Assembly: GCA_000503915.1 (NCBI GenBank)
Contig: CP006915.1
Coordinates: 720,001-752,000, forward strand
Reading direction: 5' to 3'
Origin: Candidatus Saccharimonadota bacterium
GTDB lineage: Bacteria; Patescibacteriota; Saccharimonadia; Saccharimonadales; Saccharimonadaceae
DNA: 32,000 bases
A program made the position numbers and the translations under genes. How positions within the stretch are numbered: the first letter of the stretch is position 1; every line of letters starts with the position of its first letter. This document shows positions 1,457 through 26,592 of the stretch, piece after piece. Below the pieces are notes generated by a model. The model worked only from the letters and a program-made list of their open reading frames with translations. It had not been told where the DNA came from and did no database searches.

Positions 1457-1475
1457 AGACGAGTTACCGTTTTAC

Positions 1476-1560: not shown

Positions 1561-1568
1561 AATAAAAA

Positions 1569-1962: not shown

Positions 1963-2489
1963 CGGCGGTAAAGGGTGAAGTTCAGGTTTCCATAACTACG
2001 ATTGTCCACCACAACAACTCCTGATACGGAAGGAACCTCACCCTTACCTGGATGTGATAATACCATAAGCGCACTAGGTTTGAGTAGTCCTAAGAGTCGT
2101 TTAACTGTGGAAAACTGCGGGTCATAATAGGGCGGATCAGCAAATATCAAATCAAATGGCTCGATATCGGCGGTCGTCAGCCAGTTGCTAACTGTCGTCG
2201 CCACAACTGTTCCGTCTTCTTTAAGTCGGGTCAGATTTTCTTCGATGATACGCGCCGCAACCCGGTCGCGCTCGATAAAGGTCGCCGTACGTGCGCCTCT
2301 GCTCAGCGCCTCTAGCCCCAAGCTGCCGGAACCAGCAAACGCGTCGAGTACTCGTGCCCCTTCGACAGAATTACCGAGAATATTGAATAGTGCATTCCGG
2401 GCCCGCTCGCTCATAGCGTGGGTGCTTTGACGGGTCGGTGCCGCAATCGTGCGTCCACCGTGTTTGCCGGCGATGATACGTACGTTCAT
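1953..2489 (-). CDS. rsmD: 16S rRNA (guanine966-N2)-methyltransferase RsmD
   Basis: 178 aa. Contains VLDAFAGSGSLGLEALSRGA (SAM-binding site) and IFADPPY (DPPY motif). Length and order are typical of RsmD. Confidence 0.85.
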   Translation of the reverse strand: MNVRIIAGKHGGRTIAAPTRQSTHAMSERARNALFNILGNSVEGARVLDAFAGSGSLGLEALSRGARTATFIERDRVAARIIEENLTRLKEDGTVVATTVSNWLTTADIEPFDLIFADPPYYDPQFSTVKRLLGLLKPSALMVLSHPGKGEVPSVSGVVVVDNRSYGNLNFTLYRRDA

Positions 2490-3295
2490 AGTCCGGCTGC
2501 CTCACTGTAGGCGTCGTACCAGGCGAAGGTGACGAGATTGATAATCAATGGAATAAGCGTTCTTCGGGTTTGGCGCGCTAATGTTGCGTTCCAGCCGCTG
2601 GTCCAAAAAGTATGGTACATATCGAGCGCAGCAACTGCCTCGAGCGCATCTTGAAATACCGCTTCCAGGCCTTTTGTACGATTTTCCTCAAGCCAGTCAA
2701 GCGAAGGAGCGTATTCATCAAAACGCATCGTCACAATTGCCGACGCAACACCCCATTCAAACATAAAATGAGTCGACCAAACCCCTTTCGCACCCCAATA
2801 CTGCCAGTTTTTTTGTACTGTATCACGGCGAGTGCTGCCGCGTATAATCATCTTTTCACGCACCGATAAACGTTCTTCGTGTGGCTTACCCCATAGTTCT
2901 TCGATCTTTTCTCCTAGCGGGTAATGATGTGCCGGCGTCAAACCATCTACCAATGCGTGCGCTAGCCATGCCGCTTCAAAGGCTGCCCTGGTCTCATCAC
3001 CGGCGCGAAGTGCTGCGACCAGGTTGTGGCGATGGTTGTGCAGCAATTCAATCAACCCTGTATCGTTTGGATCTGTCGGATTGATATGGTGCCACGGCTC
3101 GTCCCGCCCCGGGCTTTTACGCTTGATACCATCGGGGCCGTTCAACCCTTCAAAATGCAGAATATCACGAATCGACGGGAATAGCGCGTGTGCGGGAAGC
3201 TGCCGAACAAGGTGTCGCCGAGCGACACGGTCTATCCGCTGGTGCGCTCCCATGACGCGACCGGATTTTTTATGGATGATGGTTCCTGAATACAT
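2486..3295 (-). CDS. hypothetical protein with phospholipase C / P1 nuclease-like zinc-ligand motif
   Basis: 269 aa. HALVDGLTPAHH (H-x3-D-x5-H) plus GAHQRID, EPWHHINP and HNHRHN. No signal peptide. ATGA overlap with the rsmD start (2486-2489). Confidence 0.45.
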   Translation of the reverse strand: MYSGTIIHKKSGRVMGAHQRIDRVARRHLVRQLPAHALFPSIRDILHFEGLNGPDGIKRKSPGRDEPWHHINPTDPNDTGLIELLHNHRHNLVAALRAGDETRAAFEAAWLAHALVDGLTPAHHYPLGEKIEELWGKPHEERLSVREKMIIRGSTRRDTVQKNWQYWGAKGVWSTHFMFEWGVASAIVTMRFDEYAPSLDWLEENRTKGLEAVFQDALEAVAALDMYHTFWTSGWNATLARQTRRTLIPLIINLVTFAWYDAYSEAAGL

Positions 3296-3387
3296 AGCGG
3301 CTTCGCCTTATGAGACAAACCAAACGGTTTTTATCATCGCGCCGGGAACGGAATAAATCCATTCATCGGGCTGCTCTTTTCCCTTCA

Positions 3388-5418: not shown

Positions 5419-5426
5419 AAACTACA

Positions 5427-6188
5427 TTATGACACGCTCAATATGCCACGAACGACATATGGCGTCGTCTCCCAGCCCTCAACTGCAATTGTATCTATTC
5501 CCATTGCTCGCACAGGGTAGTCATTACCACCCTCCTCGAGTCGATCCCCAATAAATAGAGCGTCTGACTTCTTCATGCCCAACGCATCGAGAAGCTTCTG
5601 CATCCCATAAGCCTTGTCGATCCCTTTGGCCGTAATGTCTACGGTTGTAGTACCTCCATAGCGAACCTCAAAATCAGGTAGCTCCTCTGCAATTGCTTCG
5701 GTGAGACTATAGGCATCTTCTTTATGCCTATTAAACCACTCATACTTTGCTTCAGCTGGTGCTTTTTGTCCAAGCAGTGACATAGAGATTTGACTCAGAC
5801 GATCCTCAATCACCTCACCATATGGATCGGCAGGCCATAGACCAGCTGCTTTGGCGTGACGCTCACATACTTCGGCAATTTTGCTCTTTTGTTCATCGGT
5901 AAAGTCCTCTGCATACTCGAGCCTCCAGTTTGCCGCGTCACCCTGGTACGTGTAGTATCTGGTACCACACGTTGGTAAGATATGCATGTTTCTAAGCTCT
6001 TCGGCAGTCGCCGACCCCAGCGGCTCTATAATGTTGGTCTGAAAGATCTCGTAGCGACTCCCTGAAATAATAGCTACTTGATAGTGCTCAAGTAAACGAG
6101 CTAGTAAATCGCGCATCTCATCTGTTATAGGGTTCTTTGACTTAACTAAGGTATCGTCTACGTCAAATGCTATCAACCTCTTTGTCAT
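5427..6188 (-). CDS. HAD-IIB family hydrolase (phosphomannomutase-like)
   Basis: 253 aa. FDVDDTL (DxDxT motif I), GIDKAYG, and FIGDRLEEGGNDYP (motif IV). AAGGAGG SD upstream. Confidence 0.7.
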   Translation of the reverse strand: MTKRLIAFDVDDTLVKSKNPITDEMRDLLARLLEHYQVAIISGSRYEIFQTNIIEPLGSATAEELRNMHILPTCGTRYYTYQGDAANWRLEYAEDFTDEQKSKIAEVCERHAKAAGLWPADPYGEVIEDRLSQISMSLLGQKAPAEAKYEWFNRHKEDAYSLTEAIAEELPDFEVRYGGTTTVDITAKGIDKAYGMQKLLDALGMKKSDALFIGDRLEEGGNDYPVRAMGIDTIAVEGWETTPYVVRGILSVS

Positions 6189-6205
6189 AATCCTCCTTAT
6201 GCGTA

Positions 6206-7414
6206 CTATTTTATCAGTACGAAGCTATTCTTGCCTTTTTTGAGAAGGCTTGGCGCGCTTAATGGCTGGTCGTCGCGTAGCTTTTCACCGTTTACGGAAA
6301 CCGCTCCGCCGGCGATGAGGCGACGAGCCTCACCATTGCTACTGGCCAGGCCGCTTTCAACTAAAACTTGAGTCGCCTTCATCGTAGAAACGACTGGAAG
6401 TTCACCGGCTAGAATATCGACGATATCTCCACCCATAGCTTCCAGCGAGGATGTACTAAACAAGGCTTCGGTAGCTTTTTCGACTAATACGGCTTGTTTG
6501 TCGCCGTGAACCAATGTAGTAACTTCGTGCGCCAGCTGAGCTTGTAAAGCACGTTTTTCCGGTGCCGATCGATGCTCGGCAATCAGCTTTTCGACCGCTG
6601 CTTTATCGAGCAATGTGTAGATTTTTACTAGATCTTCAGCAGTCTCATCATCGACATTCAACCAGAACTGGTAAAACTTGTACGGACTGGTTCTCTTTGG
6701 GTCAAGCCAGACAGCACCAGCTTCAGTCTTGCCAAATTTCACTCCAGTCTGCTTATTGACGATAAGTGGTGTCGTAAAAACGTGTGCTTCAGCCTGCTCG
6801 AGCCGACGGATCAGTTGCACGCCAGTAATACAATTACCCCACTGGTCGGCACCAGATAGCTGTAATGTTGCGCCTTCCTTGCGGTACAGGTGAAGAAAGT
6901 CATACCCCTGGATCAGTGCGTAACTGAATTCGGCATAGCTAATACCTTCTCCACCTTCGCCAATACGCGCCTTTATAAAATCGCGATCCAGCATCTGCGT
7001 CATCGGTGCATGCTTGCCAACGTCACGGAGGAACTCAAGGTAGTGAATGTCTTTAAACCAGTCGTAGTTGTCGACAATCTTAAATTCCTTACCGGCAAAA
7101 ATGGTTTTATACTGTTCGATGATAGCCGCTTTATTATGCTCAATTTCAGCCTGTGTCAGTAGGTCGCGCTCTTGCTTCTTGCCGTCAGGGTCGCCAATCA
7201 TACCAGTTGCCCCGCCGATTAATAAAATCGCGGTGTGTCCATGGTCTAGGAAATGACGAATCATCATGGCCGGCGCTAAGTTTCCGATATGCATACTATC
7301 AGCACTTGGATCGACGCCCCAGTAAAACGTACGCGGCTCGTTAATATCGGTCAGGTTCGCGAGCGTCGTTTGGTTGACGAAGCCACGCCAGGTTAATTCA
7401 TCAGATAAAGCCAT
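6206..7414 (-). CDS. tyrS: tyrosine--tRNA ligase
   Basis: 402 aa. HIGN (HIGH motif), KFGKT (KMSKS motif), C-terminal S4-like domain. AAGGAGA SD upstream. Confidence 0.9.
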   Translation of the reverse strand: MALSDELTWRGFVNQTTLANLTDINEPRTFYWGVDPSADSMHIGNLAPAMMIRHFLDHGHTAILLIGGATGMIGDPDGKKQERDLLTQAEIEHNKAAIIEQYKTIFAGKEFKIVDNYDWFKDIHYLEFLRDVGKHAPMTQMLDRDFIKARIGEGGEGISYAEFSYALIQGYDFLHLYRKEGATLQLSGADQWGNCITGVQLIRRLEQAEAHVFTTPLIVNKQTGVKFGKTEAGAVWLDPKRTSPYKFYQFWLNVDDETAEDLVKIYTLLDKAAVEKLIAEHRSAPEKRALQAQLAHEVTTLVHGDKQAVLVEKATEALFSTSSLEAMGGDIVDILAGELPVVSTMKATQVLVESGLASSNGEARRLIAGGAVSVNGEKLRDDQPLSAPSLLKKGKNSFVLIK

Positions 7415-7438
7415 TCATTCTCCTTGTCTTCTCATTAA

Positions 7439-7467
7439 AGTATACCGAATCATACGCGGATTTTAAA
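7439..7467 (-). promoter_or_regulatory. candidate tyrS promoter TTTAAA-17-TATACT
   Basis: Minus strand -10 TATACT (7444..7439) and -35 TTTAAA (7467..7462). The leader is only about 24 nt. Confidence 0.5.
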
Positions 7468-7475
7468 AACATTAG

Positions 7476-7484
7476 TGCTATAAT
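7476..7484 (+). promoter_or_regulatory. candidate extended -10 promoter (TGcTATAAT) for the PBP gene
   Basis: TGCTATAAT at 7476-7484, divergent from the tyrS promoter. No good -35. Confidence 0.5.
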
Positions 7485-7520
7485 GAGGGAGAATATTGTT
7501 TATGGGGAAGTGTATAGCTC

Positions 7521-10223
7521 GTGGCAAAAAGATCATCGCACCGTCGAATGAATGTTTACTCTAATCTGTCTCACCGTCGACAAACCCGTAAAGACAAAAC
7601 GGCTAGACGTAAGGCAGAATATTTGGCAAGCTTGCCAAAGCATCCTTTCAAACGAACCATCTATCGCCTCCATCCGAAACGTGTGGCTGCTTTTTGGTTT
7701 AGCAAACGCGGCGCTTTCACACTACTGAAACTCTCCGGCGTCGGCATACTATTGATGGTATTGCTCGCTGGCGGCGTATTTGCCTACTACCGCAAAGATA
7801 TCGACCAGATCCGCCCGAGCGAACTTGCCAAGCGCGTCCAGACCACCGTCACAAAGTATTACGACCGTAACGACAAACTTCTATGGGAAGACAAGGGTGA
7901 CGGTGACTACAAGTTGGTAGTTGACGGTAAAGACATCGCCAAGACGATGAAGCAAGCTACTATTGCCATCGAGGATAAAGATTTCTACCACCACAACGGC
8001 GTCAGCGTCAGCGGCCTACTACGTGCGGCTATCAATAATACGACCGGCGACAGCACGCAGGGTGGCTCAACCCTTACTCAGCAGCTCGTCAAACAAGTTT
8101 TTTTTGCTGATGAAGCCCAAGAACGTGGCCTCGCCGGTATTCCCCGTAAGATCAAAGAAGTTATTTTGGCGGTTGAAGTCGAGCGCATGTATAACAAAGA
8201 GCAGATCCTCGACCTGTACCTCAACGAGTCGCCGTATGGTGGCCGACGAAACGGCGTCGAATCTGCCGCTCAAACATACTTTGGTATACCGGCAAAGAAC
8301 CTGACGCTAGCACAATCCGCCCTGCTCGCCGCCATACCAAATCAACCTGGACTTTATGATCCCTATAACTCGGCTGGTCACGAGGCGTTAATTAGTCGTC
8401 AACACCGTGTACTCGACAGAATGGCCGAACAAGGCTATGTCACCAAAGCGCAGGCGGACGAAGCGAAAAAAGTACCGATTCTTGACACGATAAAGCTTGA
8501 ATCAAGTCAGTACAAGAATCTCAAAGCACCTCACTTTATCCAAATGGTAAAGTCAGAACTTGAGCAGAAACTGGGTAAGGCCACAGTAGGACGCGGTGGT
8601 CTGATCGTTAAAACCACGCTTGACATACGTATCCAAGACAAGCTCCAAAGCACCATGAAGGATATGTTCGCCGGCACTAATGGCATTAATTGTTATGGCC
8701 TCGTCTGTCCAACCTACGCCGGTTTCTCCAACGGTGCCGCAACCTTTGAGGACGTAAAGACTGGCCAGATTATCGCTATGGTCGGCAGCCGCGACTTCAA
8801 TTACCCTGGTTTTGGTCAAGACAATGCTGCGGCTGCCTTTATCCAGCCCGGCTCGTCGATCAAGCCCCTTGTATACGCCGAGTTGTTTGAAGATAAGGGC
8901 GAAGGCTCAGTCAACTTCGGAAGCGGTTCAATTCTGTCCGACTCACCGATTAGTTTTGGTAGCTACAAACCGCAAGACGCCGATGGACGCTTCAAGGGCA
9001 ACATCCCGATCCGAAAGAGCCTAGCCTGGTCGCGAAATATCCCGGCTATTAAAGCGATGCAAATCAATGGTGTCGAGCCTACTCTGACGACAATACGAGC
9101 TATGGGTGACAAGTATTACTGTACGCAGGGCGCTGAAAAAGAAGCCGGCCTCTCGTCGGCAATCGGCGGATGCGGTACGCGCATGATCGACCACGTGAAC
9201 GCAATCGCCTCTCTGGCGCGCACCGGTGTCTATATGCCAACCAGTACGGTCCTCAAGGTTACCAACAATAACGGTGACATACTCGAAGAGTACAACAAAG
9301 AGTCAAAACGTATTATCAGCGATCAAGCTGCCTACATCGTCAATGACATTTTGGGAGATGCCGATGCTCGCCGCGGTCTCTTTGGTAGCAGCATCACTCC
9401 CACCCTCGATGCAGCCGGCGTGAAAACAGCCATCAAAACCGGTACGAGCGACAAAAACCGTGAGCCAAAAGACATCTGGACGGTTGGCTACACGCCGACA
9501 GTGGCTGGTGCCGTCTGGCTCGGTAACCCCGATACAACCCCATTGATAAATGGTAACTCGTCGATCCCGGCTCGAGTACTCGACCCAGTGATGGCCTATG
9601 CGGCCACGCTTTATCAAAAAGATGGCATGGCAAAAAGTGGCGATTGGTTCTCAGAGCCAAAAGGCATTCAGCACATTGGCAAAGAACTTTTCCCGTCTTG
9701 GTACAACAAATCAAAAGCTCAGTCCGGTGAGAAGCTGACCTTCGACAAAGTTTCTAAGAAAAAGGCGACAACCTGTACACCTACTGGTGCCAAAATTGAA
9801 TTGACCGTCACAAAGACCAAAGATCCTGTGACCAACGCAGTTATCTATATCGCGCCAGACGGCTACGATGCGACGGCCAATGATGATGTCCACAAGTGTG
9901 GTGATGCCAAGCCGACCATCAATGGTATTACGGTCGATGGCGATCAAATCAGTGTCAATGTCACCAAAGGAAAATACTCGCTTGATACACTGACGATCCG
10001 TGTCGATGGAGAAGCTATCGCAACCCGCAGTATTACGGGTAGCGGTACCTACACGACTACCTACCGATTTAAGTCAGATAAAGTCACTATTTCCGCCAGT
10101 GTTACCGACGAGGCCTACTATGAGGCTACTCGCAGCCTGTCCTACACCGTTCCTACAGGCTCAGGCGATACGGGTGGCGGTTCAACAACTGAATCGCTTA
10201 GACAACATCGTCCTGGTCGTTAA
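7521..10223 (+). CDS. class A penicillin-binding protein (glycosyltransferase GT51 + transpeptidase) with a C-terminal extension of about 165 aa
   Basis: 900 aa. Basic N-terminal tail and one TM segment. IAIEDKDFYHHNGV and GGSTLTQQL (GT51). SSIKP (SxxK) and KTGTS (transpeptidase). The start is uncertain: GTG 7521 or ATG 7548. Confidence 0.85.
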   Translation: MAKRSSHRRMNVYSNLSHRRQTRKDKTARRKAEYLASLPKHPFKRTIYRLHPKRVAAFWFSKRGAFTLLKLSGVGILLMVLLAGGVFAYYRKDIDQIRPSELAKRVQTTVTKYYDRNDKLLWEDKGDGDYKLVVDGKDIAKTMKQATIAIEDKDFYHHNGVSVSGLLRAAINNTTGDSTQGGSTLTQQLVKQVFFADEAQERGLAGIPRKIKEVILAVEVERMYNKEQILDLYLNESPYGGRRNGVESAAQTYFGIPAKNLTLAQSALLAAIPNQPGLYDPYNSAGHEALISRQHRVLDRMAEQGYVTKAQADEAKKVPILDTIKLESSQYKNLKAPHFIQMVKSELEQKLGKATVGRGGLIVKTTLDIRIQDKLQSTMKDMFAGTNGINCYGLVCPTYAGFSNGAATFEDVKTGQIIAMVGSRDFNYPGFGQDNAAAAFIQPGSSIKPLVYAELFEDKGEGSVNFGSGSILSDSPISFGSYKPQDADGRFKGNIPIRKSLAWSRNIPAIKAMQINGVEPTLTTIRAMGDKYYCTQGAEKEAGLSSAIGGCGTRMIDHVNAIASLARTGVYMPTSTVLKVTNNNGDILEEYNKESKRIISDQAAYIVNDILGDADARRGLFGSSITPTLDAAGVKTAIKTGTSDKNREPKDIWTVGYTPTVAGAVWLGNPDTTPLINGNSSIPARVLDPVMAYAATLYQKDGMAKSGDWFSEPKGIQHIGKELFPSWYNKSKAQSGEKLTFDKVSKKKATTCTPTGAKIELTVTKTKDPVTNAVIYIAPDGYDATANDDVHKCGDAKPTINGITVDGDQISVNVTKGKYSLDTLTIRVDGEAIATRSITGSGTYTTTYRFKSDKVTISASVTDEAYYEATRSLSYTVPTGSGDTGGGSTTESLRQHRPGR

Positions 10224-12446: not shown

Positions 12447-13442
12447 CTATAACGCAGGTGTTTCTGAGAGTGTACTATCGATACTCTTATTGAGCGAAAT
12501 CGTTTCCGCACTCACGATCTTCAGCTGCGCCACTAAAGAATCATAGGTTGTAATGTCCGCTTTGATCTGCTGGCGCGTTGCATCCAGCACATCACTGCGC
12601 GCGATAAGTGCCGAACGAGCGCTGTCAAGCTCCGCTTGGTCGTTGAATCCGCCCGATCGCTGGGCACGGGCATTAAACGCTGCCACGTCCTCATTGAGCT
12701 GCGCCACGGCTAGATTGTATTTTTTTGTCGCCGTATTGATCGTATCCGCCAGTGCGTTAGCCTGCTTTAAAAGACTATCAGCCTTGTTAGATAAAGAGGT
12801 AAACACCGATTGTACCGATGAATGGAGCGCCACCAGCGAGGCACGATTCGTAAAGTAACGCTCATAATACCGCTCCAATTCTCCGCCCAGGTTGGTAAAC
12901 TCTGTCCCTAGGATCGAGTGTAGCTCATTTACACCTTGGCCTGGCTCGTTTTTATTATAATACGCCATCCGCGTCTCAAGTTCGGTCGTTTTGACCCGTT
13001 GATACGCCGCCTCCAGTAGCGGCTTCAATCGGTCTTTCTCGCTCTGTGATAGGCGATCGTAGGCGGCATGGAGCATTTCGTGAGCCGCTGTCACCGCCTG
13101 AATGCCGTCGAGTTGGTCACTCGTCACGTTGAAGATATAGATACGTCCCAGCGAATAACAGCCAAGGATAGGGCTGTTAGCTTCTTTTCGCTCGCAGCGG
13201 GCGTTGAAGGTGCTCCTGCCGGCGATTTCAGGTTCACTGGCGTAAAATAGGAACTTTCCATCACCGGTCAGTCGAGCCTTACTGGCGACCGACTCAACTG
13301 CGGCACTCGGTGTGTACTGGTTGTAGTGAATCAGGTCGATGACGTACTGGTGATTTAGCCATAGCCACCCGGCAATGCCGAGCGAAATAAACCCGATAAG
13401 CCAACGTGTAATGGTAGTTGGCCTACTTCTCGTCGTCGACAT
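12447..13442 (-). CDS. hypothetical membrane-anchored HExxH (HEMLH) protein with C-terminal coiled coil
   Basis: 331 aa. N-terminal TM segment (WLIGFISLGIAGWLWL), two Cys, AAHEMLHAAY, and a long Ala/Leu/Gln-rich helical C-terminus. The start overlaps the clpC stop by 20 nt. Confidence 0.6.
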   Translation of the reverse strand: MSTTRSRPTTITRWLIGFISLGIAGWLWLNHQYVIDLIHYNQYTPSAAVESVASKARLTGDGKFLFYASEPEIAGRSTFNARCERKEANSPILGCYSLGRIYIFNVTSDQLDGIQAVTAAHEMLHAAYDRLSQSEKDRLKPLLEAAYQRVKTTELETRMAYYNKNEPGQGVNELHSILGTEFTNLGGELERYYERYFTNRASLVALHSSVQSVFTSLSNKADSLLKQANALADTINTATKKYNLAVAQLNEDVAAFNARAQRSGGFNDQAELDSARSALIARSDVLDATRQQIKADITTYDSLVAQLKIVSAETISLNKSIDSTLSETPAL

Positions 13443-17199: not shown

Positions 17200-17224
17200 A
17201 AAAAATCCGACCGAAGCGGCCGGA
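17200..17224 (-). terminator. intrinsic terminator-like hairpin + U6, 22 nt upstream of the nusA start (pilin terminator and/or nusA leader attenuator)
   Basis: Minus strand UCCGGCCG-CUU-CGGUCGGA (17224..17206) followed by UUUUUU (17205..17200). One G-U pair on the minus strand is an A/C mismatch on the plus strand. Confidence 0.65.
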
Positions 17225-17278: not shown

Positions 17279-18868
17279 TTACGGCAAAGTATAGGTGTAC
17301 GTACAGGTTGTACCACTGAGTGTTCCGCCATCGGCACAGTAGTAATATCCACCATCTTGAGTGGCAGCGTAGCTAGTAGTACACGTTGAGCCGCTCAGAT
17401 TGCCACCACTCGGACAGTAGTAATAACCGCCGCCACTACTGTACGATGCGCTATAGCTACAGGTTGAACCGCTCAGGGTACCACCGTTAGGGCACGAGTA
17501 AGGGTAAGTAGCTGGCTGGGTTTTAGTGCAAGTAATGCTATCAGGGAATGGGCTTCCTGACCCCGTCTGAGTATAGCCTGCTGGACAGCCTGTTTTTGTG
17601 TTTGAACCAACAGTCGATGTGCACGTCTCGTTGGTTGGCCCACTCCAGCCACTTGGGCACGTCGGTGTCGTAGCCGCATTATAGCTACAAGTAGTGCCGC
17701 TCAAGGTACCGCCATTCGGGCAATAATACCCCCCGCTACTATATGTGGCAGGGTATGAACTCTGACAGTTAGTGCCTACTAGAGTACCCCCACTTGGGCA
17801 GCTGTAATATCCGGATGTATAGGTGGCAGACTTGTAACATACGCCGTTATAGGTGTATCCACTTGGGCAGCTGTAGGTTGTCGTAGCAGTAGCCTCGTGC
17901 ATATTATAACAGTTGGATCCACCCCAATTATAGCCGGCTGCTTCACAGCCAGATTGAGTAGTGTAGTTTGGCCGATCATGGCGACAGTTATTAAATTGAT
18001 TGAGAGTGTCGTAATTGGGATGTGCACAGCTATAGGTCGTTGTAGCAGTAGCACTCACTTCACATTTATCGCCCGATAATGCTCCACCGCTAGGACAGGA
18101 ATAATATCCGGCCGTATACGTAGCTGGCGTCGAGGAGTTGCATGTTGTGCCACTTAGGGTACCACCGCTCGGACAAGTATACACGCCCGAACTTTGATAA
18201 CTCGCTGCATACGTACTCGTACACGTCGTACCACTCAATGTGCCACCACTCGGGCAGCTGTAAGTGCCGCTCTGGTAGGTAGCAGCGTAGGTTTTGGTAC
18301 AGGTATTGCCGCTTTGGGTTTCACCGGCGGCACAGGTGGCGGTACCGGCGACTGGCGTGAAGGTATCGTGCAGGCTTTTGGCGATGACGATACTGTTGTC
18401 GCTTTCTTTCTGGTATTGGAGCTGGTAGCCATCACAGTAGCCAGTCAGGCTGGTCTGGCACTGGGTGTTTTTGGTACTGTTGGTGGTGTTGGCACTGTAG
18501 AGCAGCCGGGTGGGGCTAGGACTACTGGTGACGATGGAGTTCTTGGTGGCGTCGTCCGCCAGGGGGAGTTTGAAGGTGTTGGCACTAACGACACCGAGCT
18601 TTTGTCTGAGGGTTGCCACGTCTTGGCTGGTCATAAGAGCAACTGAGGGGTATTCACCGTTTTCACGGTAGTACTTTTCTAGAGCGGTCGAGAGAATCTT
18701 GACGTTAGCGTCACGGGCAGTATCGCGGCTGCTCTTTTGGATTGATGCGGCTGAGAGAGAGACCAGGCCAGCCAGGAGGCCGATGACGATGACGACGATG
18801 GTGAGTTCGACAAGGGTGAAGGCGGGGAGGAAACGATTAATGCGTTGTTGTTTTAGTGTTTTTGCCAT
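17279..18868 (-). CDS. large type IV pilin-like protein (ComGC-type prepilin N-terminus) with a Cys-hairpin repeat domain
   Basis: 529 aa. Class III signal ...RFLPA|FTLVELTIVVIVIGLLAGL with F1 and E5 and Ala at -1, as in streptococcal ComGC. The C-terminal 350 aa is Ser/Thr/Gly/Tyr-rich and carries 30 Cys. Confidence 0.8.
   Translation of the reverse strand: MAKTLKQQRINRFLPAFTLVELTIVVIVIGLLAGLVSLSAASIQKSSRDTARDANVKILSTALEKYYRENGEYPSVALMTSQDVATLRQKLGVVSANTFKLPLADDATKNSIVTSSPSPTRLLYSANTTNSTKNTQCQTSLTGYCDGYQLQYQKESDNSIVIAKSLHDTFTPVAGTATCAAGETQSGNTCTKTYAATYQSGTYSCPSGGTLSGTTCTSTYAASYQSSGVYTCPSGGTLSGTTCNSSTPATYTAGYYSCPSGGALSGDKCEVSATATTTYSCAHPNYDTLNQFNNCRHDRPNYTTQSGCEAAGYNWGGSNCYNMHEATATTTYSCPSGYTYNGVCYKSATYTSGYYSCPSGGTLVGTNCQSSYPATYSSGGYYCPNGGTLSGTTCSYNAATTPTCPSGWSGPTNETCTSTVGSNTKTGCPAGYTQTGSGSPFPDSITCTKTQPATYPYSCPNGGTLSGSTCSYSASYSSGGGYYYCPSGGNLSGSTCTTSYAATQDGGYYYCADGGTLSGTTCTYTYTLP
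17303..18334 (-). repeat. in-frame array of about 14 Cys-x(10-19)-Cys units, core YxCPSGGTLSGTTC, period about 26-27 aa
   Basis: Cys pairs at aa 179/190, 205/216, 232/243, 258/269, 281/295, 308/320, 334/344, 357/368, 383/394, 404/416, 428/447, 459/470, 485/496 and 511/522. Nine have exact C-x10-C spacing. Confidence 0.85.
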
Positions 18869-18877
18869 ACCACTTTA

Positions 18878-18906
18878 AATATAAGCAATATTGTTAAGAA
18901 ATGCAA
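18878..18906 (-). promoter_or_regulatory. candidate pilin promoter TTGCAT-17-TATATT, only 9 nt from the ATG
   Basis: Minus strand -35 TTGCAT (18906..18901) and -10 TATATT (18883..18878). ATG at 18868. No SD is visible. Confidence 0.4.
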
Positions 18907-18979
18907 TGATGCAGGCTAGTTTTTATAGACCTTTTTTATCTATACTATAAGGCCTGTTAAAGATCGTCTTTCACCGTTG

Positions 18980-19648
18980 TTATTGGCATCGAGCTAGAAT
19001 ACTGGCAATTACCTGCTTTTCGCCTTCTGTAACCCATAAGTGATATTTTGCTTTAACGGCGATTTGGCGTGAAATGTACTGACAACGAAACGATTTATTT
19101 GGCGGCAGCCAGGTTGCGGCGTCACCATCTGACTTTTGCTCATTGGCTAGACCGTCAACGGCCAAAAGATTGAGTGGATCATTATAAAATGCCTTCCGCT
19201 GCACATAGTTTAGTTGTTGTGCACCTTTTTGCCAGGCATCGCTCACCGCTACAATATGATCTATCTGAACAGCTACGCTCGTGTCGGAACCACGCTGGAA
19301 ATTGATTATTTTACCGGCATAAGGATCCTGAAGTATACCCGAGAGCACTTCACAGTCGCTATTTACCTGTGGGTTCTTCAGGTCTCGTAGCAAAATTCGA
19401 TTGCGTGTGTCACAGCCGCCAGTCATCTGCCAATCCCCTCCGAACTGATCACGGCTATAGTCGGTTCTTGGTGCCCGCCCCTTTATCTCCAGTTGCTCCA
19501 ATTGCTGCCGAGCGATTTGGACAGACGAGGTCTGGTGATGGACGTCTTTTGTCGGCTGCCCTACATCCGTCTGCGAAACAGGTATCGCAAGCGCGAGCAA
19601 CAAAACAAAAACGAATACAAGCTGACGCCTACGGTAGGAGTGAGTCAT
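18980..19648 (-). CDS. secreted DUF1524 / His-Me finger (HNH-type) nuclease family protein
   Basis: YSRDQFGGDWQMTGGCDTRNRILLRDL, VQIDHIVAVSDAWQKGA, NDPLNLLAVDGLANEQKSDGDAATWLPPNK and RCQYISRQIAVKAKYHLWVT match the actinobacterial-type DUF1524 secreted nuclease family. Signal-like MTHSYRRRQLVFVFVLLLALAIPVS. I prefer ATG 19648. The track ORF extends to GTG 19687, which would overlap pepN. Confidence 0.75.
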   Translation of the reverse strand: MTHSYRRRQLVFVFVLLLALAIPVSQTDVGQPTKDVHHQTSSVQIARQQLEQLEIKGRAPRTDYSRDQFGGDWQMTGGCDTRNRILLRDLKNPQVNSDCEVLSGILQDPYAGKIINFQRGSDTSVAVQIDHIVAVSDAWQKGAQQLNYVQRKAFYNDPLNLLAVDGLANEQKSDGDAATWLPPNKSFRCQYISRQIAVKAKYHLWVTEGEKQVIASILARCQ

Positions 19649-19655
19649 GCTACGT

Positions 19656-19663
19656 AGTATAAT
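19656..19663. promoter_or_regulatory. overlapping divergent -10 boxes (TATACT on -, TATAAT on +)
   Basis: AGTATAAT at 19656-19663. Minus TATACT (19661..19656) is 7 nt from the nuclease ATG at 19648. Plus TATAAT (19658-19663) is 8 nt from the pepN ATG at 19672. Confidence 0.45.
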
Positions 19664-19665
19664 GG

Positions 19666-22176
19666 ATGAACATGCAGACTGTATCACGCCTCATTCAAAA
19701 CTTCACGCCCGAACAGTATCAACTTTCACTCGAGATTGACCGCACCAACAAAACATTCACCGGCACCGTCACAATAAACGGTATCTCACACGTTGAAAAT
19801 GAACTGCGCCTTCACGCCAAAAGTTTGACGATCAAGACCGTCGTTATCGACGGCAAGACAGCGACCTGGACCCAGACTGAGAATGACGAGTTACTACTCA
19901 AGCAGCCAGAGATAAAGCCAGGCAAGCACATTGCAGTGCTTGGGTTCAGTGGCATAATTACCGACGCCATGCACGGCATGTACCCATGCAACTTCGAGCA
20001 TGGTGGCAAAAAGAAGCAGCTGATCGCAACGCAATTTGAAAGCCATCATGCGCGCGAAGTCTTTCCTTGCGTTGACGAACCAGAAGCGAAGGCGATCTAC
20101 GACGTCACCCTAACCACTGAGAAGGGCGTCACCGTACTCGGTAATATGCCAGTGAGGCAGCAGCGCACTGAGGACGGCAAACTCGTCACTACTTTTGAGC
20201 GGACGCCGCGCATGAGTAGCTATCTGCTCGCCTGGGTTGTCGGTGAGCTGCATAAAAAAACTGCCAAGACAAAAAGTGGCGTCGAAGTGAACGTTTGGGC
20301 GACACCCGCCCAAAGTTCGGAAAGTCTCGACTTCGCGCTTCAATTCGCAACACGAACGATTGATTTCTTCGATGAATACTTCGGCGTCGCCTACCCTCTG
20401 CCAAAATCCGACCACGTAGCATTGCCGGACCTTTCGTCCGGTGCCATGGAGAACTGGGGACTAATTACGTACCGCGAGGTTGCTCTTCTAGCTGACCCGA
20501 AAACCACTAGTATTTCGAACCGGCGCTATATCGCCATGGTAGTCGCTCACGAACTGAGCCACCAATGGTTCGGTAACCTCGTCACCATGAAGTGGTGGAA
20601 TAACTTATGGCTCAACGAGAGTTTTGCCAACCTCATGGAATACATCGCTGTTGACGCGCTCCACCCAGAGTGGAATATTTGGCTTGATTATTCTTCCAGT
20701 GAAACAATCATGGCGCTCAGACGCGACGCGCTAGATGGCGTACAGGCTGTACAGACCGAAGTTAACCACCCTGATGAAATCAGTACATTGTTTGACGGCG
20801 CCATCGTCTATGCCAAGGGTGGGCGTCTGCTGCGTATGTTGCAGCATTATATCGGTCACGATGCCTTTCGCGCCGGATTGCAAAGTTATTTTAAAAAATA
20901 TGCCTATCAAAACACTGAAGGTGACGATTTGTGGCACGAATTATCAACGGCAAGTGGCAAAGATATCGCTGGCTTCATGAATGATTGGATTTCCCAACCC
21001 GGCTATCCCGTCGTTCACGTCGAAGAAAATGGGCTTCGCCAGGAGCAGTTTTTCGTCGGGACTCACCAAGCAAGCAACAGACGGTGGCCAATCCCGCTTG
21101 GAGCCAGCTCATCGGTCATGCCACCACTCATGGAAACGAGCTTGCTCGCTACCACTATCGAACCCGGTGAGCGCCTGAACGTCGGCGACACGGCGCACTT
21201 TATCACGCATTATCCGACTGACTATTTAACTGCGCTCGTCGAGCAGGTTCGTATCGGCTCGCTTGAAGCGATCGACCGTTTGCAGCTACTGCACGAACAG
21301 ACCATGCTGGCGCGTGGCGCGATCAGTCCCAGCGCTGAACTGATTCCACTACTTGAAGCCTACAAACATGAACAGGTCGAAAGTGTCTGGGATATTATTG
21401 CGCTTGCGCTTGGCGAGCTTAAGAAATTTGTCGAGACCGACAAAGAAGCTGAAACGAGCTTACGCGAACTTTCGCGCCACATTGCCGAGCGTGAATATAA
21501 ACGGCTCGGCTGGCAGGCGGAAGAGGCTGAACCTGAAACCGATAGCAAACTCCGCGCTATTATCCTCAGCATGACGCTCTACGGCGAAGAAAAGAGTGCA
21601 ATCGACAAAGCTCACACACTCTTTCGGGCTGGAGTCGATACCATTGATCCTGAACTTCGCAGTCTAATCACCGCAAGTGAGGTGCGTCATTTTGAAACAC
21701 CGGAGCTGATCGACTCGCTTATTGAACGGTATCGCACGACGCCATCAAGCGATTTGCAAATGGATATTTGTGCCGGTATCACCAGTACGCGTAATCCCAA
21801 AACCATCCAAAAACTACTACTGACCATAAAAGATCCTTCCATCGTTCGCGCGCAAGATGTCTTCCGTTGGTTCGTTTCCCTCATCCGTGGCCGCGAATCA
21901 CGCGTCGCCACCTGGCAGTGGATGAAAGAGAATTGGGAATGGATTGAGACAACCTACGCCGGCGATAAAAGCTTTGATGATTTCCCGCGCTACGCTGCCA
22001 CGGGTCTTATTACGCAAGAGCAGCTCGAAGATTACCAAGCGTTCTTTGCCCCCATGCAAAGCATCCCAGCCTTAAAGCGTGTCATCCAGCTCGGCATCGC
22101 CGAGATCGCAGCTCGTGTTGAGCTGATTGACCGTGACGCAGCTGCCGTTCGGCGAGCCTTATTCGATCTCGAGTAG
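19666..22176 (+). CDS. pepN: aminopeptidase N (M1 family)
   Basis: 836 aa. GAMENWG exopeptidase motif, HELSHQWFGN...E zinc site, ERAP1-like C-terminal domain. The start may be the second ATG at 19672. Confidence 0.9.
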   Translation: MNMQTVSRLIQNFTPEQYQLSLEIDRTNKTFTGTVTINGISHVENELRLHAKSLTIKTVVIDGKTATWTQTENDELLLKQPEIKPGKHIAVLGFSGIITDAMHGMYPCNFEHGGKKKQLIATQFESHHAREVFPCVDEPEAKAIYDVTLTTEKGVTVLGNMPVRQQRTEDGKLVTTFERTPRMSSYLLAWVVGELHKKTAKTKSGVEVNVWATPAQSSESLDFALQFATRTIDFFDEYFGVAYPLPKSDHVALPDLSSGAMENWGLITYREVALLADPKTTSISNRRYIAMVVAHELSHQWFGNLVTMKWWNNLWLNESFANLMEYIAVDALHPEWNIWLDYSSSETIMALRRDALDGVQAVQTEVNHPDEISTLFDGAIVYAKGGRLLRMLQHYIGHDAFRAGLQSYFKKYAYQNTEGDDLWHELSTASGKDIAGFMNDWISQPGYPVVHVEENGLRQEQFFVGTHQASNRRWPIPLGASSSVMPPLMETSLLATTIEPGERLNVGDTAHFITHYPTDYLTALVEQVRIGSLEAIDRLQLLHEQTMLARGAISPSAELIPLLEAYKHEQVESVWDIIALALGELKKFVETDKEAETSLRELSRHIAEREYKRLGWQAEEAEPETDSKLRAIILSMTLYGEEKSAIDKAHTLFRAGVDTIDPELRSLITASEVRHFETPELIDSLIERYRTTPSSDLQMDICAGITSTRNPKTIQKLLLTIKDPSIVRAQDVFRWFVSLIRGRESRVATWQWMKENWEWIETTYAGDKSFDDFPRYAATGLITQEQLEDYQAFFAPMQSIPALKRVIQLGIAEIAARVELIDRDAAAVRRALFDLE

Positions 22177-23127
22177 TTCTTCAATTACCGGCGACACACC
22201 GACCGTAGTCGCTACCATTAGAAGCGCGTTTGCCTCCGGCGCAAATCTTGTCAGGTATGCCTCAGCCGCAAATTTCATCTGACGCAACTTTTTTGCCGTG
22301 ATTGCCGCTAGTCCACCGCCGCGTACGATATTTTTACGATGCTTAACTTCGACAAAATAAACTGTGTCATTCTTTCTCGCTACGATATCGATTTCGCAGA
22401 ACTTTGTTTTCCAGTTCCTGGCAAGAACCTCATACCCCCGCTTGCGTAATTCGTCCGTCACCAGAGTTTCAGCCGCATCACCAATCTCTTTTGATGAATG
22501 TCTCTCTGACGCGGCAACAGTTTGGGTACTCGCGGGCTTGATACGTTTATTGTACTTTGCAAGTGGCGCAAAGCTGAGTCGATGCAAGGGCGTTACCCCG
22601 TATTTCTCTATCGCCGCACGATGTATAGCAGTACCGTAGCCAACGTGCGAGGCAAAGCCGTAATCCGGATATAGCTCTGCCTGCTGCACCATATATTCAT
22701 CACGGGCGACCTTGGCGACGATACTGGCTGCACTAACGGCTGCTATCAGTAGGTCTGCTTTTTTGAGTGTCGTCACGTAGCGCCCTTTTGGGGTGTCTTT
22801 TAAAAAGTTAACCGTCCCATCGAGAATAATTTCATGATACGCTACCCCTAGCGTGTCGACTGCCTGTACAGCGCGTTGACACGCTAGCGCTAGCGCCTGG
22901 CTCAGGCCTAGCGTGTCGATCTCATCAGCACGCACCCAGCCAAGGCCAACGCCAGCTGCCTTTTCACGAATTTCCAGGGCGAGTTCGGTACGCCGCTTTG
23001 CCGAGAGCTTCTTGCTGTCAGTCAACCCATCGATATCACAGCCCAACACCACTGCTCCGACCACCAATGGACCAGCCCAGGGTCCACGACCTACCTCATC
23101 GATGCCAAGTATCATACTTTCCAGCAT
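22159..23127 (-). CDS. rnhB: RNase HII fused to a YraN-family (UPF0102) endonuclease domain
   Basis: 322 aa. N-terminal GIDEVGRGPWAGPLV...DSKKL...HRLSFAPL (RNase HII, aa 1 to about 192). C-terminal IGDAAETLVTDELRKRGYEVLARNWKTKFCEIDIVARKNDTVYFVEVKHRK (YraN, aa about 214-322, nt about 22162-22488). The 3' end overlaps pepN by 18 bp. Confidence 0.8.
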   Translation of the reverse strand: MLESMILGIDEVGRGPWAGPLVVGAVVLGCDIDGLTDSKKLSAKRRTELALEIREKAAGVGLGWVRADEIDTLGLSQALALACQRAVQAVDTLGVAYHEIILDGTVNFLKDTPKGRYVTTLKKADLLIAAVSAASIVAKVARDEYMVQQAELYPDYGFASHVGYGTAIHRAAIEKYGVTPLHRLSFAPLAKYNKRIKPASTQTVAASERHSSKEIGDAAETLVTDELRKRGYEVLARNWKTKFCEIDIVARKNDTVYFVEVKHRKNIVRGGGLAAITAKKLRQMKFAAEAYLTRFAPEANALLMVATTVGVSPVIEELLEIE

Positions 23128-23793: not shown

Positions 23794-24927
23794 ATGGACT
23801 ACGACAAACTCGCTCTTGACCTACATAAACAGTACGGCGGAAAGATAGCCACTCACCTACGCGACACCTCACAGCTCGATACGACCAAACTCAGCGCTTA
23901 CTACACGCCAGGTGTCGCAGCCGTCAGCAAGGCCATCGCCGACGACCCGAGTAAATTGCCCGAATATACCTGGACGAACAATCTCGTTGCGGTTATTTCC
24001 GATGGATCGGCAGTACTTGGCCTTGGCAATATCGGTCCGAAGGGTTCAATGCCAGTCATGGAAGGAAAAAGCCTACTCTTCAAGCACTTTGCTGGTATTG
24101 ATAGCATTCCGATCACGCTCGATGTTCATACGCCCGATGAAATCGTTAGCGTCGTCAAGGCCATCGCGCCCAGTTTTGGCGCCATCAACCTGGAAGATAT
24201 CGCCGCGCCGCAGTGCTTTGAGATCGAAGAGCGGCTGAAGAAGGAGTTGCCAATCCCTGTCTTCCACGACGATCAACATGGTACTGCCACCGTGGTGCTT
24301 GCTGGCCTCATCAATGCTGCAAAAGTGACAGACCGTGATCTCGCGACCAGCAAAATCGTCGTGGTTGGAGCGGGCGCGGCCGGCACGGCGATCATTAAGA
24401 TTCTTAAACTCTACGGCGTCGGAAAGATATTGGCGGTCGATTCAAAAGGTATCGTCTCGCATGCTCGTAGCGACCTCAATAGTGCAAAGAAGCTACTGCT
24501 TGAACACGCCCACGGTGATGAGGACGGCTCGCTCGCTGATGCCCTAACCGATGCCGACGTCTTCATCGGCGTCAGTCAGCCCGGTCTCCTTACAAAAGAG
24601 CTTGTCAGAACTATGGCCAAAGACCCGATCGTTTTCGCACTGGCTAACCCGAAGCCAGAAATTTTACCCGAAGACGCCCATAGTGCGGGTGTTGCCGTCA
24701 TTGCAACTGGTCGTAGCGACTTCCCCAACCAGGTCAACAACGCCATCGCCTTCCCGGGTATCTTTCGCGGCGCTCTTGACCACCAGGTTCGCGATATCAC
24801 CGACCAGCACAAGATTGCTGCCGCCGAAGCAATCGCCAGTATGGTTGCTGAGCCGACGGCTGACTGCATTATTCCAAGCGTCTTTACGGAAGGTTTAGTC
24901 GAAACAATCGCCGACGTCATTCGCTAG
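23794..24927 (+). CDS. NAD(P)-dependent malic enzyme (short form)
   Basis: 377 aa. YTPGVA, VISDGSAVLGLGNIGP, FHDDQHGTA, and the GAGAAG Rossmann motif. Confidence 0.85.
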   Translation: MDYDKLALDLHKQYGGKIATHLRDTSQLDTTKLSAYYTPGVAAVSKAIADDPSKLPEYTWTNNLVAVISDGSAVLGLGNIGPKGSMPVMEGKSLLFKHFAGIDSIPITLDVHTPDEIVSVVKAIAPSFGAINLEDIAAPQCFEIEERLKKELPIPVFHDDQHGTATVVLAGLINAAKVTDRDLATSKIVVVGAGAAGTAIIKILKLYGVGKILAVDSKGIVSHARSDLNSAKKLLLEHAHGDEDGSLADALTDADVFIGVSQPGLLTKELVRTMAKDPIVFALANPKPEILPEDAHSAGVAVIATGRSDFPNQVNNAIAFPGIFRGALDHQVRDITDQHKIAAAEAIASMVAEPTADCIIPSVFTEGLVETIADVIR

Positions 24928-26558
24928 ATAACGCGGTTGACTTCTTCAAGCGTCGTCTCACCACGCAAGGCCGCCAGCACGCCAGCCTGAAGCAGCGTTA
25001 CCATGCCGTTTTCTTTGGCTGACTGCTCGACGATTTCTGTGTGGAATTCATCCTTGTCGCCACGGAGGAACTTCTGGATTTCTTCATCAACAACCAATTG
25101 TTCCATGATAACGATACGACCCTTGTAGCCAAACGGTGTCGCCTCTGAAGGCACCGGTTTCCATAATTTAAAGTTATCAAGATCCGGCTTTTCTACCGAT
25201 TCGGGAAGATCGCTGAGCACTTCGCGCACCCATTTTCTGGTCGCTTCATCGGGTTCGTACTCCTGCTTCGTCTCGTCGTGCAGCCGACGTACCAAGCGCT
25301 GTGCAATCACCAGGCGAATCGCGGTCGAAAAGATAGGGTTCTGGCCAATCAGGTCGATCATACGGCTAAAAGCGGCGGCCGAGGAGTTGGCATGGAAGCT
25401 TGAGAGTACCAAGTGTCCGGTGATCGAGGCCTGGATGGCAGTCTTTGCGGTATCCTGGTCGCGGATCTCACCGACCATGACGACATCTGGGTCAAGCCGA
25501 AGGATTGCGCGTAGACCATCGGCAAAGCTTTGACCTGCCGTAGTATTGACGGGGATCTGTGAAATACCGGAAATCCCGTATTCGATTGGGTCTTCCAGTG
25601 TCAGGATCTTGCGGTCGGTCGTATTGAGCGCATTGAGCATACTGTAGAGTGTCGTGGATTTTCCGCTACCGGTTGGACCGACCATCAGTACCATACCACG
25701 CGGATGCGAGATGATTTCATCGATTTCTTTTCGCTGTTTGGCAGGAATATTGAGTCGATCAAGTTGCAAGAGACTTTCGTCAAAGTTAAATAGTCGCAGC
25801 ACCGCATCTTGGCCATACATGGTTGGCACGGTTTCGACACGCAAGTTTAAAAGATGCGTACCTTGTTCGGTCGTAATCTCTTTTTGCATATGACCGGACT
25901 GTGAACCCTCGGCAGCAATCGAGATATTAGCTCGAGATCCGAGCGCGCCCATGATGACCCGATAGCGGTCTTTACCAAGCTCCGCGACCGGGTGAAGCGC
26001 ACCATCGATACGCATCCGCACCCGTATCACCTCGCGCTGATTCTCGATATGGATATCGCTCGCACCGAGCTTGTCAGCCTGGTCAATTAAATAGTCAAAT
26101 ACTTGATCGGTACCAACGGAATTTAGCGTCCGACTAACTTCAGCCAGTGTATCACTATCACCTTCTCTGGCGATCTGAATGTCTTCATAAATAATTTCCT
26201 TAGGCGGGTCATAGCGGTTCATGAGTGCCTTAAAACCGCTGCCGCTGATCATCAGAAACTGGATCGAATCACCGCGTTCGTTATAGTCACGACGCATTTT
26301 CTCAACGAGTGACTGCGGCGTCTGTGTGGTAATACCAAACCGGTACGGTCCGTCGTCATCGCCGCGTTTTAAGGGGACGAGCCGCCCCTGGTACATCTCA
26401 GGAATTTCTAGTGCGCCCTCGACAAGCGCTAAATCTTTTTCGATCGGCCGCGTATCAAGATACGGTACGCCGAGGATCGCTGCCCGCTGCTTGGTCGCAT
26501 TTTCGTCGTACTCCCGCCGCTCGGCTTGGACTTTATCTTCATTCATTACTCTTATCAT
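24924..26558 (-). CDS. pilB: type IV pilus assembly ATPase PilB (GspE family)
   Basis: T2SSE N-terminal domain, Walker A GPTGSGKST, Asp and His boxes, Walker B. The track ORF extends to TTG 26591. ATG 26558 (MIRVMNEDK) or ATG 26546 is more plausible. The stop shares a CTAG with the malic enzyme stop. Confidence 0.85.
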   Translation of the reverse strand: MIRVMNEDKVQAERREYDENATKQRAAILGVPYLDTRPIEKDLALVEGALEIPEMYQGRLVPLKRGDDDGPYRFGITTQTPQSLVEKMRRDYNERGDSIQFLMISGSGFKALMNRYDPPKEIIYEDIQIAREGDSDTLAEVSRTLNSVGTDQVFDYLIDQADKLGASDIHIENQREVIRVRMRIDGALHPVAELGKDRYRVIMGALGSRANISIAAEGSQSGHMQKEITTEQGTHLLNLRVETVPTMYGQDAVLRLFNFDESLLQLDRLNIPAKQRKEIDEIISHPRGMVLMVGPTGSGKSTTLYSMLNALNTTDRKILTLEDPIEYGISGISQIPVNTTAGQSFADGLRAILRLDPDVVMVGEIRDQDTAKTAIQASITGHLVLSSFHANSSAAAFSRMIDLIGQNPIFSTAIRLVIAQRLVRRLHDETKQEYEPDEATRKWVREVLSDLPESVEKPDLDNFKLWKPVPSEATPFGYKGRIVIMEQLVVDEEIQKFLRGDKDEFHTEIVEQSAKENGMVTLLQAGVLAALRGETTLEEVNRVI

Positions 26559-26583
26559 AGCAAACCGCCTACGCTTTTTATAG

Positions 26584-26592
26584 TGATACAAT
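26584..26592 (+). promoter_or_regulatory. extended -10 (TGaTACAAT), 7 nt upstream of the methyltransferase ATG (leaderless architecture)
   Basis: TGATACAAT-AGAGTCC-ATG(26600). No SD. Confidence 0.5.

Follow-up and report, generated by a model that had tools for sequence, protein, structure and literature searches.

A predicted modular type IV prepilin of a Saccharibacterium with a cargo of putative disulfide-stapled hairpins

Modular type IV pilins comprise more than 1,200 proteins with 264 architectures, many of them from Candidate Phyla Radiation (CPR) bacteria, and include PilB and PilC of Streptococcus sanguinis, which carry a vWA and a lectin module, respectively (PMC8179133, PMC9934059). 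They are documented adhesins, and repeat-array pilins of CPR bacteria have been noted by Raynaud et al., for example a Falkowbacteria pilin with 12 copies of one motif (PMC8179133). In Nanosynbacter lyticus TM7x, the one Saccharibacterium that has been investigated, the two major pilins are of small size and large pilins belong to the minor class; the latter bear large C-terminal domains and have been proposed to mediate adhesion to the host, and efficient binding of the host depends on PilX2 (PMC11623550). A different docking device is known from conjugation, where TraN attaches the donor to the recipient cell via a variable tip that contains a hairpin flanked by Cys residues (PMC9246713). 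Host recognition by ultrasmall epibiotic CPR bacteria is poorly understood, and type IV pili are the only structure that has been shown to matter. Here, we describe a gene located in a stretch of 32,000 nucleotides (nt) of a Saccharibacterium genome (contig CP006915.1, positions 720,001 to 752,000; the whole stretch is referred to as the window), which encodes a predicted type IV prepilin of 529 amino acids (aa) with a C-terminal array of 14 Cys-Cys hairpins. A first reading of this sequence (the original prediction) had described the product as a giant ComGC-type pilin and candidate adhesin.

At 100% identity, the protein corresponds to AHB42675.1, which bears the GenBank name “YD repeat protein” and belongs to Candidatus Saccharibacteria bacterium RAAC3_TM7_1, an organism with a closed genome of 845 kb. 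Its open reading frame (ORF) starts with an ATG that is the first start codon of the frame, two codons past an in-frame stop. The leader MAKTLKQQRINRFLPA is followed by the N-terminus FTLVELTIVVIVIG (also cited as FTLVELTIVVIVIGLLAG), with F at position +1, E at position +5 and an FTLVE motif. Both the 529-aa ORF and the prepilin leader with Ala at position -1 were found as originally claimed. A class III signal peptide is defined by a short basic leader that ends in G or A, by F or M at +1, E at +5, and about 20 hydrophobic residues; the window protein agrees with this pattern, which is kept in 20 homologues, where position -1 is occupied by either G or A. An AlphaFold2 (AF2) model shows a helix (H19-70) and strands forming a small alpha/beta lollipop head, with a pLDDT (predicted local distance difference test) value of about 90. 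Comparison of this model with the PDB by Foldseek yielded only type IV pilins as meaningful matches, among them the CofA pilus as the best (E 3.8e-3, probability 1.00) and Neisseria PilE, and a PDB search with the protein sequence led to geopilin, TcpA, PilA, and GspG. One orthologue (P0002) passes both the N_methyl model PF07963 and TIGR02532 (23.2 bits), and precomputed PF07963 matches exist for four further proteins (P0005, P0009, P0012, and P0015). The leader with F at +1 and E at +5, the modeled lollipop head with its pilin fold matches, and the orthologues that pass these two models lead to the conclusion that the protein is a type IV prepilin, as far as sequence and model can tell.

The specific assignment to the ComGC type, in contrast, was not borne out. 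NCBIfam matches are confined to aa 9–85 and all remain far under the equivalog cutoffs; the best is the generic GspG model (1.7e-10), followed by Myxococcus PilA (8e-6) and ComGC (9e-5). The pilin_ComGC model (NF040999) reaches 22.6 bits versus a cutoff of 75, and the residue at -1 varies between G and A among orthologues. For about 40 positions of the head, 90% or more of the columns are invariant in an alignment of 21 homologues.

The remainder of the protein is built from hairpins. Two of the 30 Cys residues (C137 and C145) belong to the head, and the other 28 form 14 consecutive pairs within aa 179–522 (nt 18334–17303). The loops of these pairs measure 10, 10, 10, 10, 13, 11, 9, 10, 10, 11, 18, 10, 10, and 10 residues, which confirms the claim of 14 pairs including nine with exact C-x10-C spacing. 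Shuffling this region 10,000 times gave 2.0 C-x10-C motifs on average and never more than 8. The start-to-start distance of the units ranges from 21 to 31 aa with a median of 26, in line with the previously given period of about 26–27 aa, and eight units fit the pattern C[PA]xGGxLxGxxC. Ser and Thr together make up 33%, Gly 14%, and Tyr 11% of the array, which is nearly uncharged: its 359 aa include 5 K, 2 R, 6 D, and 5 E (net charge -4). When modeled alone, the array consists entirely of beta-hairpins (pLDDT 81.6; predicted template modeling score 0.34). This high local but low global confidence indicates that the array is locally well defined and globally elongated or flexible. The part with the highest confidence in both the full and the array-only models is a central segment with four Cys residues, termed the knob, which was identified in the pilin family only, in nine of its members. 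An even number of Cys residues was counted in the predicted mature form of all 29 pilin-plus-hairpin proteins, and in two homologues with an odd total the extra Cys is located within the predicted leader. These even mature counts and the position of the extra residues indirectly support both pairwise oxidation and removal of the leader. That the tail represents a genuine array of hairpins stapled by Cys pairs is supported by sequence and model.

A profile search of the repeat, as had been suggested, gave no match to a characterized domain family and located the repeat in TraN and many surface proteins, so that it is not specific for pilins. Likewise, the array tail has no Pfam, NCBIfam, or PDB family match, the knob segment (window positions 17819–18061, aa 270–350) matched no sequence in the PDB, and Foldseek searches of the PDB with the full and the array-only models found nothing for the array (best E ~1). 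Matches to Zn_ribbon_RRN7, BORA_N, and ODV-E18 in Pfam and NCBIfam scans of the protein and its homologues are sub-threshold and were discarded as spurious. The sole viral structure in BFVD that matches the array model is A0A6M6DDH0, an unnamed protein of 981 aa (Foldseek E 2.6e-6, 20% identity), for which the TM-score is negligible and the match not interpretable; possibly, this viral protein contains hairpin repeats of a similar kind.

The repeats appear to be old. Two copies of CPSGGTLSGTTC (nt 18221–18256 and 18140–18175) differ in 9 of 12 codons (10 nt), all synonymously, exactly as the original prediction had stated, including the codons that it quoted. When each of the eight core units is compared with every other, identical residues are encoded by different codons in 63.5% of cases, a value that random draws from the local codon usage also produce (63.5–65%), and Tandem Repeats Finder detected no DNA repeat in the array region. 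The repeat therefore exists at the peptide level only, with fully randomized synonymous sites between units. Compared to the orthologous gene of a related Saccharibacterium (L081), synonymous sites are saturated (proportion of synonymous differences, pS, 0.72–0.93), whereas the proportion of non-synonymous differences (pN) amounts to 0.28 in the head (dN/dS ~0.14), 0.20 in units 1–4, 0.40 in the center (aa 271–456, knob included), and 0.13 in units 12–14. Cys positions are invariant across 21–28 homologues. As pS is saturated while pN stays at 0.13–0.40, these comparisons point to old repeats that are kept by purifying selection on the peptide, an explanation that had been proposed for the codon divergence and that is upheld here.

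In the alignment of 21 homologues, the head and the units at the start and the end of the array are conserved and enclose an indel-rich middle, in which the 4-Cys knob (aa 281–320) is again conserved; the array measures between 310 and 530 aa in close relatives. A second copy in the RAAC3 genome, AHB41878.1 (P0004, 382 aa), is identical to AHB42675 at 216 of 220 positions in aa 1–220 (98%; window positions 18209–18868) and shares its last 25 aa, yet its center is shorter, unrelated, and only 16% identical. This pattern suggests either gene conversion of the head or replacement of a cassette. Conversely, two other homologues (P0002 and P0003) exhibit heads that are only 55–60% identical and yet carry colinear 14-unit arrays. 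Judged from these sequences, head and array evolve separately. In a related Saccharibacterium, three tandem full-length paralogues of 508, 369, and 436 aa are located downstream of bipA (L081, positions 2917–7041 of a 70.8-kb contig of ENA ERZ27247358, and L082). The middle one was called 29 aa too short, and its database entry (P0014) lacks the prepilin leader. No gene conversion was detected among these three paralogues, whose synonymous sites are saturated.

The hairpin unit is not restricted to pilins. A hidden Markov model (HMM) of the unit, derived from the window protein, identified 15–18 units in sphingomonad F-type TraN (independent E-value, i-E, <=0.01) and likewise in membrane proteins of 700–900 aa from gut Bacilli. 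The repeat-bearing sphingomonad TraN proteins possess the PF06986 C-terminal domain and are encoded in TraC-TraU-TrbC-TraN-TraF-TraH-TraG operons; a Sphingopyxis TraN, located within such a tra operon, exhibits 18 hairpin units. Smaller numbers of units are found in surface proteins of Actinomycetota and Patescibacteria. The unit is also present in surface proteins of Shewanella and others. An exhaustive HMMER search of 1.84 billion proteins returned 424 clusters at 50% identity with E<=1e-3, 155 of them with E<=1e-10, and protein lengths between 160 and 4,088 aa. Among 72,556 plasmid records, 24 carry the repeat (sphingomonads, Shewanella, and few others), none of them an Enterobacteriaceae plasmid or enterobacterial TraN, and a search of phage genomes gave no match. 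About 30 of the retrieved proteins are prepilins, in which the hairpin array is joined to at least five different pilin head families. In other Saccharibacteria, the same head (42% identity, aa 5–167) carries three fn3 domains (L002) or one (P0054). As the array is also found outside of pilus proteins and the same head bears fn3 cargo elsewhere, its sequence places the protein among the modular type IV pilins as defined by Raynaud et al. Proteins with 14–18 hairpin units and 700–900 aa are abundant in metagenome-assembled genomes of gut Bacilli and Coprovivens (L007, positions 7377–9896; P0022, P0026, P0033, and P0102). These have an N-terminal transmembrane segment and a pilin-like “AAxxYYxxDRLP” domain, lack a prepilin site, and are encoded in a housekeeping context (pheST, DnaJ-domain protein).

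The features of the gene and of its surroundings are compiled in Table 1. The neighboring genes in the window are housekeeping genes (clpC, radA, nusA, pepN, rnhB-UPF0102, rplS, malic enzyme, and dnaE). The only other type IV filament component in the window is the PilB-type ATPase, which is encoded about 6 kb away from the pilin gene and in no pilus operon there, and no second prepilin motif is present anywhere in the 32 kb. The RAAC3 genome is reported to contain about 60 type II/IV pilus-related genes and a full type IV pilus set (PMC3812714). A promoter scan upstream of the pilin gene revealed no site above background. Immediately upstream lies a gene for a 235-aa GmrSD_C protein (DUF1524, HNH-type nuclease; 18980–19687, minus strand) with an N-terminal hydrophobic segment, whose start overlaps the start of the divergent pepN by about 22 nt. 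This protein may be an extracellular or membrane nuclease that scavenges DNA; its adjacency to the pilin gene is not kept in the one relative examined. The GC skew at positions 18001–19000 is +0.18 and is negative nearly everywhere else in the window; this segment matches the 5' two-thirds of the minus-strand pilin gene. Elsewhere in the window, a 322-aa ORF (22159–23127, minus strand) fuses RNase HII with a UPF0102 (YraN-like nuclease) domain, and three ORFs have no Pfam match: 12447–13442 (minus strand, 331 aa), 2486–3295 (minus strand, 269 aa), and 933–1565 (plus strand, 210 aa).

Table 1. Features of the predicted prepilin gene and associated elements (positions of the window).
Feature	Position	Strand	Remark
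Complete coding sequence of the 529-aa modular prepilin AHB42675.1	17279..18868	-	stop codon included
Class III (prepilin) leader, aa 1-16, basic, Ala at -1	18821..18868	-	predicted cleavage before Phe17
Predicted pilin module, aa 17-170	18359..18820	-	hydrophobic alpha1 helix with Glu5, then small alpha/beta head
Putative head disulfide loop C137-x7-C145 (QCQTSLTGYCDG)	18434..18460	-	near-invariant in the family
C-terminal module, aa 171-529	17282..18358	-	array of 14 Cys-Cys hairpin units
Units 1-4, aa 179-269	18062..18334	-	all C-x10-C; conserved proximal stalk
Central 4-Cys knob, units 5-6, aa 281-320	17909..18028	-	CxH..D..CxHxR..Y..GC..AG[YWF]xW..C
Units 7-11, aa 334-447	17528..17869	-	loops x9, x10, x10, x11, x18; variable, indel-rich among homologues
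Units 12-14, aa 459-522	17303..17494	-	all C-x10-C; most conserved part of the protein, then C-terminal strand TCTYTYTLP
Intrinsic-terminator-like hairpin	17206..17224	-	8-bp stem with 6 GC pairs, T6 tail; 55 nt past the pilin stop, between pilin gene and nusA
PilB/GspE-type assembly ATPase (T2SSE)	24924..26591	-	TTG start; between malic enzyme and SpoU methylase genes

On balance, we favor the explanation that the protein is a pilus-displayed adhesion stalk, in which a pilin head presents a stapled array with a knob that touches other cells. In this model, the prepilin peptidase (PilD) would remove the 16-aa leader and, outside the cytoplasm, each consecutive Cys pair would be oxidized to staple one hairpin. 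By means of its alpha1 helix, the protein would enter a type IV pilus, where it would most probably be a subunit of low abundance or of the tip, while the Tyr/Ser/Thr/Gly-rich, near-uncharged array would project as a thin, protease-resistant stalk, for which a length of about 20–35 nm was estimated from the unit geometry. The conserved knob and the variable units would then contact the surface of another cell, presumably the bacterial host of the epibiont, and paralogues with near-identical heads and different arrays could represent alternative specificities. The adhesion role is suggested by analogy with TraN docking, host binding by TM7x PilX2, and the modular pilin adhesins. The original prediction had named host cells or DNA as the ligand; its first half is plausible, whereas DNA binding is unlikely because the array has a net charge of -4 and only 7 K and R residues in 359 aa. 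Three observations weigh against an adhesion stalk on a pilus. The window protein itself stays below the curated thresholds for prepilin N-termini (10.5 versus 21.2 bits for N_methyl/PF07963 and 12.6 versus 16.3 bits for TIGR02532), its gene is solitary and without adjoining minor-pilin or assembly genes, and the most conserved units are terminal and the variable part internal, an uncommon arrangement for a linear stalk that binds by its distal tip.

Alternatively, the protein could be a major (structural) pilin, with every subunit carrying a rod, so that the filament would resemble a bottle-brush whose sheath protects the fiber or makes it sticky along its length. Its 529 aa are, however, 3–4 times the size of a major pilin, both major pilins of TM7x are small and the large ones minor (PMC11623550), a 350-aa appendage on each subunit would have to cross the wall during extension and retraction, and an array length of 310–530 aa in close relatives is hard to fit into a fixed filament lattice. 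We therefore regard this arrangement as rather unlikely, even though the head is closest to models of major pilins and pseudopilins (GspG, Myxococcus PilA, and geopilin), the protein has Glu5, its gene is isolated and followed by a terminator of its own, tandem paralogue clusters occur in relatives as in heteropolymeric major pilins, and a body location of modular pilins was left possible by Raynaud et al. (PMC8179133). A subunit that is never polymerized would account for the distance of the gene from any pilus operon: the prepilin-type N-terminus would do no more than fix the protein in the membrane, with the rod reaching through the wall and the S-layer as a surface adhesin or spacer. The related arrays of Bacilli do reside on a plain N-terminal transmembrane anchor instead of a prepilin, and the arrays in TraN and other proteins work without a pilus. 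A simple anchor would not need the full head including its disulfide loop, though, which is strongly conserved as judged from its pN and dN/dS, and the use of this head by other cargo types is as expected for a display scaffold; this possibility is likewise considered improbable.

Two further explanations fare worse. A subunit of a competence pilus, ComGC-like and with a tail that captures extracellular DNA, was regarded as very improbable. The ComGC of streptococci has Ala at -1, as does the window protein, and the weak N-terminal ComGC match points in the same direction, as do the GmrSD_C-type nuclease gene (membrane-anchored or secreted) directly upstream and the proposed uptake of DNA by CPR pili (PMC3812714). 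Yet the ComGC model score falls far short of its cutoff, ComGC measures about 100 aa as opposed to 529 aa, the neighbors (nusA, nuclease, and pepN) do not form a comG operon, the nuclease neighborhood is not kept in the relative examined, and the negative net charge of the array is the opposite of known DNA-binding pilin surfaces. The GenBank name and the Ser/Thr-, Gly-, and Tyr-rich composition might also suggest low complexity or a mis-annotated YD/RHS-type toxin repeat without specific structure. This identity is hardly credible and was rejected, as it is contradicted by the lack of any RHS/YD Pfam (PF05593) match even at E<=1, by the invariant Cys residues across 21–28 homologues, by the shuffles that never reach the observed motif count, by the local confidence of the AF2 model, and by the evident purifying selection.

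If the protein is a pilus-displayed adhesion stalk, it provides a concrete and testable candidate for host recognition, consisting of a pilin-head display scaffold and a robust stalk, stapled by disulfides, in which a knob is conserved and other units vary. A more far-reaching and doubtful proposal is that the hairpin array and the pilin-specific knob constitute the host-range determinant of this Saccharibacteria group, in the form of an exchangeable cassette: heads would be homogenized within a genome by gene conversion, ancient array types would persist across species, and the rod would be a general docking module that is also used in TraN. A cell could then switch or combine docking specificities, and the disulfide-hairpin rod would represent a general, previously unnamed bacterial cell-cell docking module that has been recruited by TraN and other surface proteins. 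Should the pattern of constant heads and variable arrays reflect cassette exchange, it would represent a novel case of variable surfaces in organisms with reduced genomes. With ~420 clusters at 50% identity, the uncurated repeat family connects an epibiont's pilus subunit to the mating-pair adhesin of conjugative plasmids, and a curated model of the unit would better annotate many proteins now named “hypothetical,” “YD repeat,” or “Ig-like.”

Among eukaryotic disulfide hairpins, the motif Y-x-C-x-x-G-[YWG]-x-L-x-G recurs in the central strands of complement control protein (CCP)/sushi modules, in cEGF, and in the N-terminal hairpin of long-form C-type lectin domains. A profile of two consecutive units recovered short YxCxxGxxLxG stretches in the CCP modules of CR2, DAF, and factor H, none of them individually significant, as well as the CPxGWxxxxxxC hairpin of a C-type-lectin-like antifreeze protein (i-E 0.01); cEGF and Sushi also appear as sub-threshold Pfam sums in homologues. 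The likeness to sushi modules that had been pointed out originally thus persists at the level of the motif but does not extend to a significant individual CCP match. The unit described here has 26 aa and 2 Cys, in contrast to about 60 aa, 4 Cys, and a conserved Trp in sushi, and membership in Sushi/CCP (PF00084) was rejected as the window protein shows no Sushi or cEGF match at E<=1. The “Pam” CPR pilus, made of donor-strand-exchange pilins, and the eukaryotic “CysRRep” repeats were set aside as unrelated systems.

The sphingomonad F-type TraN proteins (PF06986), which stabilize mating pairs, share the identical type of hairpin unit and are likewise Cys-rich, with a variable middle and conserved flanks, and serve in cell-cell docking. 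They differ in being outer-membrane proteins of a conjugative type IV secretion system with a C-terminal PF06986 domain; both PF06986 and TIGR02750 are absent from the window protein, which is consequently no member of F-type TraN. A J Bacteriol 2026 paper on TraN does not describe the hairpin repeats. Minor pilins of the CofB/TcpB type resemble the window protein in having a pilin module followed by an elongated beta-repeat region, and are tip-located and adhesion-related (PMC8179133). There is no sequence or fold match to them, however, and the repeats of CofB, which terminate in a beta-sandwich, are no disulfide hairpins. PilX1 and PilX2 of TM7x stem from the same phylum and are also pilins with large C-terminal accessory domains that are proposed tip adhesins for a bacterial host. 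No sequence relationship of the window protein to either of them was detected; they carry a beta-jelly roll or a beta-propeller as cargo, their genes belong to pil loci, and a canonical PilD site is missing from them. The window protein, in contrast, has a canonical site and is encoded by a solitary gene.

The modular type IV pilins are the closest match, as they also combine a small N-terminal pilin module with a grafted C-terminal module that is not pilus-specific and probably displayed on the filament for adhesion. The cargo in this case, known from sequence and model, is not a globular domain but a 14-unit disulfide-hairpin array with an embedded knob. Domain-based surveys of modular pilins would miss it because it has no InterPro, Pfam, or NCBIfam signature. 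The statement that no pilin of this architecture had been described must therefore be divided. The uncurated disulfide-hairpin cargo shared with TraN, the pilin-specific knob, and the decoupling of head and array are new, in that none of the libraries and papers searched describes them. The kind of protein, in contrast, is known already: modular and repeat-array pilins of CPR bacteria have been described (PMC8179133) and large minor pilins have been proposed as adhesins (PMC11623550), and the window protein joins them as a further modular CPR pilin and likely adhesin.

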